Virus record (IMG/VR): IMGVR_UViG_3300007512_000025
Span: 13,428 to 77,427 of that record
Strand: one strand, 5' to 3'
DNA: 64,000 nt
Source of the DNA: a virus
The translations under genes and the position numbers were made by a program. A model generated the notes under the pieces. That model saw nothing but the letters and a program-made list of their open reading frames with translations. It was not told the origin of the DNA and searched no databases. Positions 11,376 to 12,434 of this stretch are shown piece by piece; positions within the stretch are counted from its first letter, which is position 1; every line of letters starts with the position of its first letter.

Positions 11376-11411
11376 TGACCCACGGGGGGGCACAGGGTTA
11401 TCAGGTGCCCC
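11376..11411 (+). ncRNA. Repeated H-type pseudoknot motif, copy 1
   Basis: TGACCC/GGGTTA and GGGGCAC/GTGCCCC interleaved stems. Confidence 0.6.
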
Positions 11412-11424
11412 ACACTTTTACAAT

Positions 11425-11458
11425 ACCCACAGGCAGGCACAGGGTTATCAGGTGCCTG
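11425..11458 (+). ncRNA. Repeated H-type pseudoknot motif, copy 2
   Basis: ACCC/GGGT and CAGGCAC/GTGCCTG. Confidence 0.6.
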
Positions 11459-11484
11459 ATTTAACAATAAAGGAATTTTTTATT

Positions 11485-11943
11485 ATGAACGCAAAAAGCG
11501 GAAACTCAGTCACCGTCCACTACACTGGAACACTGGATGATGGCACAGAATTTGATACCTCCCGAGGGAGAGAACCAGTCACCTTTACTCTAGGCTCTGG
11601 GCAGTTGATTTCTGGCTTCGATACTGCTGTCACTGGAATGACAGTGGGTGAGGTCAAGGAGGTTGTTCTGTCGCCAGCAGAGGCATACGGCGAGACGAAC
11701 CCAGAGTTGACTCAGACGGTTTCACAGCAAGCCTTCCCAGAGGGCTTTGAGTTTGTCGTTGGTGGACAGGTTATGGGTCAAAGCCCACAAGGTCCAGTCA
11801 TGGCGACCATCTTGGAACTTGAGGACAACGAGGTCAAGCTTGATATGAATCATCCGATGGCAGGTAAGAATCTTAATTTTAAAATTGAGGTTGTTTCTAT
11901 CGAAGAATCGGCTGAAGGTGGTGCGGCTGCATCAGAAGAATAA
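11485..11943 (+). CDS. FKBP-type peptidyl-prolyl isomerase (SlyD/SlpA-like)
   Basis: VTVHYTGTLDDGTEFDTS, LISGFD, PAEAYG, DMNHPMAGKNLNF. Start re-called to MNAKSG. Confidence 0.9.
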   Translation: MNAKSGNSVTVHYTGTLDDGTEFDTSRGREPVTFTLGSGQLISGFDTAVTGMTVGEVKEVVLSPAEAYGETNPELTQTVSQQAFPEGFEFVVGGQVMGQSPQGPVMATILELEDNEVKLDMNHPMAGKNLNFKIEVVSIEESAEGGAAASEE

Positions 11944-11949
11944 TTTAGA

Positions 11950-11982
11950 TATCCGCAGGGAGGCACGGGATACAGGTGCCTC
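11950..11982 (+). ncRNA. Repeated H-type pseudoknot motif, copy 3
   Basis: TATCC/GGATA and GAGGCAC/GTGCCTC. Confidence 0.6.
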
Positions 11983-12005
11983 AAATTCATTAGGAGAAAA
12001 ATAAA

Positions 12006-12140
12006 ATGATGAAAATGATGAAGGTTGTTACCATCCTACCCCTCGCGCTAATGCTGGCGTGTGGTGATAAGGATGAGCAAGACAGCGGTTCCGATAGTGG
12101 AGTCGTAGAAGAAGGTGGCGACACCGGAGGGGCAGAGTAA
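12006..12140 (+). CDS. 44-aa lipoprotein (not in ORF track)
   Basis: AGGAG SD; MMKMMKVVTILPLALMLA-CGDKDEQDSGSDSG..., a lipobox followed by an acidic Gly/Ser tail. Confidence 0.6.
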   Translation: MMKMMKVVTILPLALMLACGDKDEQDSGSDSGVVEEGGDTGGAE

Positions 12141-12391
12141 TGACTGCAATTTTTACTAATCGTTGGGTTCAGGCAGGCTTGGCTGTATCAGCAATTATCG
12201 TTGGAGTGTTGGTTTTTAACCATAGCGAAGACGCTACTGTTGCTACAACTGAGGCGGCTCAGACACCAGTTACAACCGTTGCATCGCCAGATAATGCCGA
12301 TGCAGCAGCAACGACGGAGGCGAGCCTTGAGACTATCGAGCCTGTCACCGAAGATGCTGAAGCGGCTGAAACCACAGAAGCGACTGAGTAG
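12140..12391 (+). CDS. Small single-TM protein with Ala/Thr/Glu-rich tail
   Basis: One hydrophobic helix; TAATG overlap with the upstream gene. Confidence 0.55.
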   Translation: MTAIFTNRWVQAGLAVSAIIVGVLVFNHSEDATVATTEAAQTPVTTVASPDNADAAATTEASLETIEPVTEDAEAAETTEATE

Positions 12392-12398
12392 TATATCA

Positions 12399-12434
12399 TA
12401 ACCCACAGGGGGGCACAGGGTTAACAGGTGTCCC
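12399..12434 (+). ncRNA. Repeated H-type pseudoknot motif, copy 4 (recA leader)
   Basis: TAACCC/GGGTTA and GGGGCAC/GTGTCCC. Confidence 0.6.

Follow-up and report, generated by a model that had tools for sequence, protein, structure and literature searches.

The stretch of DNA analyzed here, hereafter the window, is 64,000 nucleotides (nt) long and belongs to a 77-kb IMG/VR contig (record IMGVR_UViG_3300007512_000025) of an uncultured marine phage. Between the gene for a gp32-type single-stranded DNA-binding protein (SSB) and that for a UvsX/RecA-type recombinase, it carries four copies of a short RNA pseudoknot, referred to below as the knot, all on the + strand within positions 11376-12435 and with the sequences first described for them in an earlier note on this DNA. 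Among the proteins of this phage are DNA polymerase III alpha, a split PolA, DnaB, RNR and GroEL. It is without a close cultured relative, its best UvsX relative being 33% identical. The unit runs in the order promoter, leader hairpin, gp32, knot, (gene, knot) x n and uvsX. Its features, including the open reading frames (ORFs) and the stems (P1, P2) and loops (L1, L3) of each knot, are as follows.

10494-10522, + strand: match to a sigma-70-like promoter (TTAACA-17-TAAAAT), from the promoter scan
up to 10598, + strand: gp32 leader, with a 5' hairpin at 10535-10552 and then a Shine-Dalgarno sequence (SD)
10599-11366, + strand: gp32-type SSB gene (Pfam PF08804 gp32, E 1.5e-10; phrog_1192)
11376-11412, + strand: knot copy 1, A type, 51.4 bits with covariance model R1; P1 TGACCC/GGGTTA (core 11379-11381 with 11395-11397, local extension 11376-11381 with 11395-11400); L1 ACGGG 11382-11386; P2 GGGGCAC/GTGCCCC (11387-11393 with 11405-11411); junction A 11394; L3 11398-11404; 3' A 11412
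11425-11459, + strand: knot copy 2, A type, 57.2 bits; P1 ACCC/GGGT (11426-11428 with 11442-11444); L1 ACAGG; P2 CAGGCAC/GTGCCTG (11434-11440 with 11452-11458)
11459-11484, + strand: G-poor, A/U-rich tail and SD ahead of the FKBP start codon, from the sequence and the family-wide tail profile
11485-11943, + strand: FKBP-type peptidyl-prolyl isomerase, cassette gene (Pfam PF00254, E 4e-23)
11950-11983, + strand: knot copy 3, G type, L3 without the extra U, 52.8 bits; P1 TATCC/GGATA (11952-11954 with 11968-11970); L1 GCAGG; P2 GAGGCAC/GTGCCTC (11960-11966 with 11976-11982)
12006-12140, + strand: lipoprotein-like ORF of 44 amino acids (aa), cassette ORF, from the ORF list
12140-12391, + strand: 83-aa ORF, cassette ORF, from the ORF list
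12399-12435, + strand: knot copy 4, A type, 58.8 bits; P1 TAACCC/GGGTTA (core 12402-12404 with 12418-12420, extension 12399-12404 with 12418-12423); L1 ACAGG; P2 GGGGCAC/GTGTCCC with one G-U pair (12410-12416 with 12428-12434)
12466-13599, + strand: UvsX/RecA-type recombinase, last gene of the interval (Pfam PF00154 RecA, E 1e-34)

The pattern GGCAC-N4-14-CAGGTGYC matched four times in the window, against 0.02 matches expected by chance. Model R1, which was built from relatives and described only P2, with P1 left out, scored the window copies at 51-59 bits, and its runner-up in the 64-kb window reached 10 bits. As the earlier note had it, copies 1 and 2 stand in tandem directly 3' of the gp32 stop. 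The spacer between them is 14 nt long. The gp32 stop is a TGA (11364-11366) followed by a TAG (11367-11369), and the P1 core of copy 1 begins 12 nt past the TGA and 9 nt past the TAG. The P1 core of copy 3 begins 8 nt past the FKBP stop and that of copy 4 begins 10 nt past a TAG stop. The distances from the end of P2 to the next start codon, 26 nt for FKBP, 23 nt for the small ORF and 31 nt for uvsX, also agreed with those reported earlier. The two small cassette ORFs (12006-12391) matched no Pfam family, and small lipoprotein-like ORFs similar to that of the window were found at loci L189 and L190.

The leaders of gp32 form a subject of their own. The 65 gp32 leaders of relatives that were compared (loci L005-L124) shared the layout of the window leader, with a sigma-70-like promoter (TTGACA-17-TATAAT), a hairpin, a ACUUUAAC-like sequence and an SD. 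The hairpin is located where the RNA is predicted to begin and possesses a covarying stem of 8-9 bp and a conserved loop, GAGAUUnG. It is a candidate autoregulatory operator or 5' stabilizer and is unlike the T4 pseudoknot.

Fold and covariation of the knot

A scan of IMG/VR with the core pattern found at least 120 marine viral contigs, with 105 distinct cores among the matches listed. The core pattern fixes the canonical core, and divergent versions escape it. A second, motif-blind set consisted of 80 loci retrieved via the gp32 protein, in which 88 copies were found. In two alignments, 99.5% of the cells were paired. The 105 distinct cores aligned without difficulty and gave the motif NCC-R-CAGG-[7-bp P2]-R-GGN'-(U)UA(U)CAG-[P2']-A, which is an H-type pseudoknot of about 36 nt with a P1 of 3 bp, a purine-purine junction and a P2 of 7 bp. 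This fold, which had been proposed from the four window copies, was borne out by compensatory changes in both stems and by invariant loop bases.

In the 105 cores, the CC of P1 and the purine following it were invariant even though they lie outside the search pattern. The third P1 pair was CG in 63 cores, AU in 27, UA in 7, GC in 2, UG in 3 and unpaired in 3. Both outer P2 pairs covaried, and the observed covariation score was matched by 0 of 500 shuffles. Among lower-scoring copies from the same loci, the inner P2 pairs were GGCAC/GUGCC, GGCAU/AUGCC, GGCCC/GGGCC or GGCCU/AGGCC, which are compensatory changes at four pairs, and P1 was altered to CGC/GCG in one copy. In the motif-blind set, P1 was 99% paired although it was not part of the model, two-sided changes were found in 5 of the 10 pairs and all 88 copies were in the gene-sense orientation. 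Moreover, a G-U pair occurred at one P2 position in 37 of 105 and 25 of 78 copies, for which the opposite strand would have a C-A mismatch. Given that G-U pairs are tolerable only on the sense strand, selection acts on the sense strand, i.e., on RNA.

P1 stems of 5-6 bp, as drawn in the earlier note, are present in window copies, but only the 3-bp core (NCC/GGN') is conserved and covaries throughout the family. A fourth P1 pair, present in 56 of 105 copies, is about as frequent as expected by chance. In the window copies, the 3-bp core is extended locally to a P1 of 5-6 bp.

Among the unpaired bases, C8, G10 and G11 were invariant and A26, A30 and G31 were nearly so. The purines that follow P1 and P2 were linked, with AA in 39 copies, GG in 36, AG in 3 and GA in 0. 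The A form accompanies an extra U in L3, and both forms can be present within one genome, such as that of the window, where copy 3 is of the G type. The linkage of the junction purines with the L3 U points to a defined tertiary junction. No context-dependent difference was found for A/G type and T-run.

Some copies carried additional structures. In L3 variants, the 5' part of L3 held an inserted hairpin with a length of 8 to about 50 nt (L024:4419-4480(-), L048:1753-1814(+), L022:1579-1640(-), L138:1157-1206, L179:444-530(-), L179:813-859(-), L211:1901-1960 and L268:2536-2601(-)). The stems of these inserts covaried (GCAAGG/CCUUGC vs. GGAAAG/CUUUCC), and L3 of these variants mostly ended in AUAG instead of ACAG, which L268 retained. 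About 30 nt upstream of many copies (L084, L059, L080, L013, L096) there was also an optional hairpin whose loop contains the upstream stop codon and whose 5' arm consists of the last gp32 codons. Its z score was below -1.5 in 23% of copies, with a mean z of -0.64.

Placement, terminator exchange and transcription

The earlier note had presented the knot as a 5'-leader element. Counts from 147 unique copies instead show it anchored to where the upstream cistron ends, with only a loose spacing to the next start. P1 began 5-14 nt after the upstream stop in 134 of the 147 copies, with a mode of 6-9 nt; in only 3 copies was this gap below 5 nt. Counted from P2, the following start codon was mostly 18-31 nt away, within a range of 1 to 137 nt, and some copies had no start after them. 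The upstream gene was gp32 in 80 of the 147 copies, and gp32 was the downstream gene in none. UvsX was encoded downstream of 45 copies, and the other downstream genes were for Hc1-like proteins, FKBP, small unknown proteins, Hsp90-like ATPase and ClpP. An SD was present at 125 of 141 downstream starts. The A/U-rich spacers are unstructured, as had been noted in the window, with a mean minimum free energy (MFE) of -0.9 kcal/mol and a z of 0.1.

Among the matches listed, gp32 and/or uvsX was present in 119 of the 120 pattern-found loci. The sole locus with neither was L040, whose knot (11297-11335, - strand) lies 3' of a 71-aa acidic ORF and 5' of a gene for a 320-aa protein beginning MNNMQLIMRSWKEFL. 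The start of this protein resembles an N-terminal tag shared by window genes within 40054-47617. One copy each was found in two genomes that are complete and carry terminal repeats (181 and 204 kb). A 172-kb genome had an additional copy about 96 kb from gp32, which follows a cytidylyltransferase-like gene, contains a long L3 insert and ends 5 nt before a tRNA-Thr gene that is in turn followed by a terminator. At two gp32-knot junctions, a tRNA-Glu gene and a tRNA-Met gene were located 6 and 10 nt downstream, respectively. These tRNA genes have no room for a promoter; therefore, RNA polymerase must read through the knot. There is likewise no room for a promoter of uvsX itself, and the promoter scan found no promoter-like site at any knot copy.

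The place of the knot is occupied by intrinsic terminators in other phages. In 71 motif-blind loci that held both gp32 and uvsX, the segment between the gp32 stop and the uvsX start contained only a knot in 51, only a terminator in 16, both in 1 and, according to the script, neither in 3. The latter three had visible terminators, composed of a hairpin with a long stem or a large loop and a T-run. In every gp32 relative without a model match, a GC-rich hairpin with a T-run occupied this place, directly ahead of the SD of uvsX. On the gp32 tree, at least 7 changes between the knot and terminator states were needed. The genomes of the terminator class, one of which is 100% complete, had no knot copy anywhere. 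In this slot, the knot appears to do whatever the terminator does in relatives.

A second kind of element was observed in the same slot at L195:3757-3850 and L198:3719-3800 and just 3' of the knot at L009. It consists of a hairpin (GGCAGAC...GUCUGCC) with a loop of 9-14 nt and a T-run directly after it. The loops of L195 and L198 (GGGUU/GGGAU) can pair with upstream AACCC/AUCCC, the difference being compensatory. This element, which the model missed, has the appearance of a pseudoknotted terminator.

The P2 hairpin of the knot has a predicted stability of -13 to -17 kcal/mol and a loop of 10-11 nt, and it is followed by a U-rich patch that begins at +4. A T-run of at least 4 was found in 70 of 145 tails, and none of the four window copies was called by the terminator scan. 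At the level of the family, the tail begins with A in 88% (+1), contains no more than 9% G over +1 to +10 and has 58-70% U at +4 to +7. The core motif of RNase E is RN|WUU (PMC5222698). This motif began at +1 in 53 of 145 tails and began within +1 to +6 in 83 of 145, vs. 40 +/- 5 in composition-matched shuffles. The tail of window copy 4 (ACUUU) fits it. Judged by sequence, the tail resembles an RNase E site.

Transcription was assessed from assembled contigs of metatranscriptome runs, which bear on transcription and read-through only and not on ends, strand or levels. One RNA-library contig covered 11225-11502, through both tandem copies. Two RNA contigs of 1 kb, with a depth of 530-790, crossed a relative's copy behind the region for an acidic C-terminus, with more than 400 nt on either side. 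Another RNA contig tracked the window over 11966-12436 and diverged right after copy 4. The FKBP region was empty in the RNA runs, which is uninformative because the relatives lack the FKBP cassette.

The close relatives (the window, L188, L189, L190 and L207) differed from each other by whole [gene + knot] units, and FKBP was gained or lost among them as one such unit. The window has the layout gp32, knot, knot, FKBP, knot, two small ORFs, knot and uvsX. In relatives the layouts were gp32, knot, 161-aa gene, knot and uvsX; gp32, knot, FKBP, knot, lipoprotein, knot, 161-aa gene, knot and uvsX; and gp32, knot, 71-aa gene, knot and uvsX.

Relation to described RNA families

In agreement with the suggestion that the element might be undescribed, Rfam 15 gave no match to it. 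At the gathering score, the only match in the whole window was a tRNA gene (60927-60999, + strand, 70.9 bits). With E up to 10, the region 11300-12500 gave only noise (U12, BjrC68 and mir-4637), and so did copy 4 alone. Blastn queries with the window locus and with a consensus copy had no match among 50,697 records of cultured phages, and no description of the element was found in the literature searched. A 2023 catalogue of 10,006 candidate structured RNAs in viruses describes candidates upstream of GP32 only (PMC10690425); it may nevertheless list this family without a name.

A scan of genome contigs gave 63 pattern matches, of which only four loci passed the model. They were three small contigs of metagenome-assembled genomes (MAGs) and one WOR-3 'chromosome' with gp32-knot-uvsX. 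The remaining matches were attributable to chance in GC-rich genomes, and a host-encoded copy was thus unsupported. Segments with gp32-knot-uvsX within 'bacterial' or 'archaeal' MAGs were found at L141 (CP070664.1, 'candidate division WOR-3 bacterium' chromosome), L125, L138 and L179. Such phage segments are probably carried over by binning or assembly, and that of L141 is possibly a prophage.

Possible functions of the knot

The reading that we favor, tentatively and at somewhat less than an even chance, is that the knot is a 3'-end protector or weak attenuator that permits read-through, occupies the terminator slot and also marks the boundaries of gene cassettes. The knot would form just outside the footprint of the ribosome terminating on the upstream gene, and RNA polymerase would pass through it. 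A cut would then fall in the tail, G-free and U-rich, right behind P2; where a tRNA follows, RNase P would leave an upstream message that ends a few bases past the knot. The tightly folded knot would stop 3'-to-5' exonucleases, so that the upstream cistron, chiefly the abundant gp32 message, would outlive the downstream cistrons, and the P2 hairpin and U-rich tail may add mild pausing or attenuation. Expression ratios would also be affected. Moreover, because the 36-40-nt core is near-identical among copies and phages, the knot would serve as a crossover point for the gain or loss of single genes between gp32 and uvsX. Thus, among the options listed in the earlier note, a nuclease block or processing site is the one favored here, and an SSB-controlled operator and a ligand sensor are argued against by the anchoring to the stop codon, the lack of gp32 downstream, the copies before tRNAs and terminators and the replacement by terminators.

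Intrinsic terminators and intercistronic stabilizer stem-loops, such as the REP elements and the hairpin of the Rhodobacter puf operon, are the closest known counterparts of such a protector. Similar to them, the knot lies between the stop of an abundant gene, which it directly follows, and the next cistron, in a slot where knots and terminators are mutually exclusive among relatives, and it comprises a GC-rich hairpin and then a U-rich, G-free tail. The presumed effect, a stable upstream 3' end and a lower downstream dose, is also similar. Different from them, the hairpin loop of the knot is tied to an upstream CC-rich triplet, which makes it a pseudoknot. Furthermore, unlike those of terminators, its loop bases do not vary among hundreds of phages, its U-tract is offset and often short, and read-through is required, as tRNAs and uvsX follow without a promoter.

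Several points weigh against this protector. We infer both the tail cut and the protected 3' end, and the RNA data consist of assembled contigs. Cleavage by RNase E would require a host that has this enzyme. At L007, L009 and L016, the knots directly precede a terminator, which would make a protector redundant. At a spacing of 6 nt, the terminating ribosome may briefly open the short P1. Finally, a mere stabilizer has no obvious need for the invariant C8, G10, G11, A26, A30 and G31, and the three-way linkage of the junction purines and the L3 U likewise exceeds what it needs. The invariant loops and linked junction suggest that the fold has a specific tertiary structure or offers a surface for recognition. 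Because they exceed the demands of a simple stabilizer, a protein operator, an attenuator or riboswitch and a ribozyme were kept as rivals.

If the knot is a translational operator bound by protein, free gp32, or else a different RNA-binding protein of the phage or host, would nucleate on it, spread along the unstructured A/U-rich spacer and occlude the next ribosome-binding site (RBS), as in the autoregulation of T4 gene 32. The invariant loop bases would suit such recognition, the knot is encoded beside gp32 and an SD follows most copies. The operator of gene 32 in T4, T2 and RB69 is a pseudoknot with an unstructured UUAAA-rich leader (PMC535899). Similar to it, the knot is of H type, has a size of about 30-36 nt, belongs to the gene 32 unit and is followed by an unstructured A/U-rich stretch up to the SD, a likeness that fails for the copies before tRNAs and terminators, which have no ORF to repress. 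Unlike it, the knot is located 3' of gene 32 and never in its leader, which has a different hairpin, shows no sequence similarity, precedes unrelated genes, is fixed to the upstream stop and not to the downstream start and can be exchanged for a plain terminator. A possible partner is a zinc-ribbon protein (CxxC...CxxC, 77 aa, 59559-59792, + strand, flanked by two genes for DNA methyltransferases), which has a weak DksA/TraR-like match (phrog_54, E 0.004) and was present in 6 of 6 knot-bearing and 0 of 3 knot-free (terminator-class) genomes. However, this pattern reflects three independent knot-free lineages and is nearly shared by four other families, namely a MoxR-ATPase/VWA pair, NUDIX and an unknown 312-aa protein, which differ only in that none was detected in the window genome, itself incomplete. 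The co-occurrence is therefore a lead and not evidence, and an operator is, on the whole, improbable. A leaky or regulated attenuator, i.e., a weak terminator formed by P2 and the U-rich tail and tuned by the knot, a ligand, NusA/NusG or the ribosome stopping 6-9 nt upstream, is in our view just as doubtful. It would agree with the mutually exclusive use of this slot by knots and intrinsic terminators, the stability of the P2 hairpin, the U-rich patch at +4 to +7 within an A/U-only stretch at +1 to +10, the aptamer-like conserved loops with an L3 that tolerates hairpin inserts and the tandem copies (window copies 1-2 and L079). It is opposed by a U-tract that is offset by 3 nt and reaches a T-run of at least 4 in fewer than half of the tails, by the terminator scan, which called no copy, and by the tRNAs and uvsX directly downstream, which need read-through; up to four serial copies would compound the attenuation of uvsX. 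Moreover, no conserved antiterminator pairing was found and P2 folds alone, so that nothing switches. As for a ligand, the knot is similar in size, topology and conserved loop and junction bases to the guanidine-III, preQ1-I/II and SAM-II/V riboswitches, and it resembles guanidine-III in the 7-bp P2, ACGAGG-like L1 and UCAGG-like L3. Unlike these compact riboswitches, the knot matches no Rfam riboswitch model at E up to 10, leaves the SD outside the fold, has no conserved alternative structure and is surrounded by genes (gp32, UvsX, FKBP, Hc1 and small ORFs) that are unrelated to ligands and indicate no metabolite.

A self-cleaving ribozyme, or a site for a dedicated endonuclease, that cuts the polycistronic message at gene junctions is very unlikely. 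The compact core, invariant unpaired bases and variable inserted hairpin are reminiscent of small ribozymes, and the copies are sited at cistron boundaries and just before tRNAs. However, about 36 nt and two helices are below the size of any known self-cleaving class, no Rfam ribozyme model matched, the deeply covered RNA contigs run across a copy and cleavage alone would not explain the replacement by terminators. Hardly credible is a purely DNA-level site for recombination or cassette exchange with no role in RNA. Such a site would account for close relatives that differ in gp32-uvsX gene content by entire [gene + motif] units and for synteny that breaks at the motif edge. Recombination, however, requires only sequence identity and not pairing, and the compensatory changes, sense-only G-U tolerance and strict co-orientation indicate selection on an RNA fold. 

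As a marker of cassette boundaries, the knot is comparable with the PeSLs, the promoter-early/stem-loop cassettes of T4-type phages (PMC2839356, PMC4122927). Both are short conserved intergenic stem-loop repeats that bracket single accessory genes swapped among relatives in a hyperplastic region. Different from the PeSLs, which combine a terminator stem-loop with an early sigma-70 promoter, the knot has no promoter, with only 18-31 nt to the start, is a pseudoknot with conserved loops instead of a simple terminator hairpin and is confined to one genome interval.

Other candidates were rejected. Stop-codon read-through or frameshifting, suggested by the 6-9-nt spacing, was discarded because the window gp32 has TGA-TAG as its stop, TAA accounts for 85 of 146 stops and there is no slippery heptamer. 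A promoter within the motif, with TTTACA/TTATCA as the -35 element, would have an inconsistent -10 spacing and too short a leader, and none was found in the scan. CsrA-type GGA sites in the two CAGG boxes are missing from the GG/CC and CA/TG variants. For mimicry of an RNase P substrate by a coaxial 11-bp stack with 3' RCCA, the tail is A-C/U-N-U and not RCCA.

Beyond these readings, the knot might represent a new functional RNA class instead of a passive hairpin, either a mechanical block of about 36 nt against 3'-to-5' exonucleases, in which the loops brace the 3' strand, or a very small aptamer or ribozyme with A/A+U and G/G isoforms. We regard such a class as unlikely. The exonuclease-resistant RNAs (xrRNAs) of flaviviruses and plant viruses, the latter of about 45 nt (bioRxiv 10.1101/2024.12.17.628992), are likewise compact pseudoknots with conserved tertiary contacts, and the mechanical stop to exonucleases proposed here for the knot would be analogous to theirs. 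The xrRNAs block the 5'-to-3' exonuclease Xrn1 and have a loop tied downstream, whereas the loop of the knot pairs upstream and the expected enemy is a 3'-to-5' exonuclease. If it acts as an exonuclease block, the knot would be a phage/bacterial mirror image of viral xrRNAs.

The knot constitutes a well-supported RNA family without an Rfam entry that is abundant in marine viromes and deeply transcribed in metatranscriptomes. Its repeated exchange with terminators is a natural experiment on the need for a terminator hairpin when transcription must continue. If it confers resistance to 3' exonucleases, it would be a tiny, portable mRNA-stabilizing module for setting expression ratios inside operons, and no earlier pseudoknot of this type would be known from phages. 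Finally, the knot flags the points of gene insertion between core replication and recombination genes and thereby aids the reading of plastic regions in uncultured phages.

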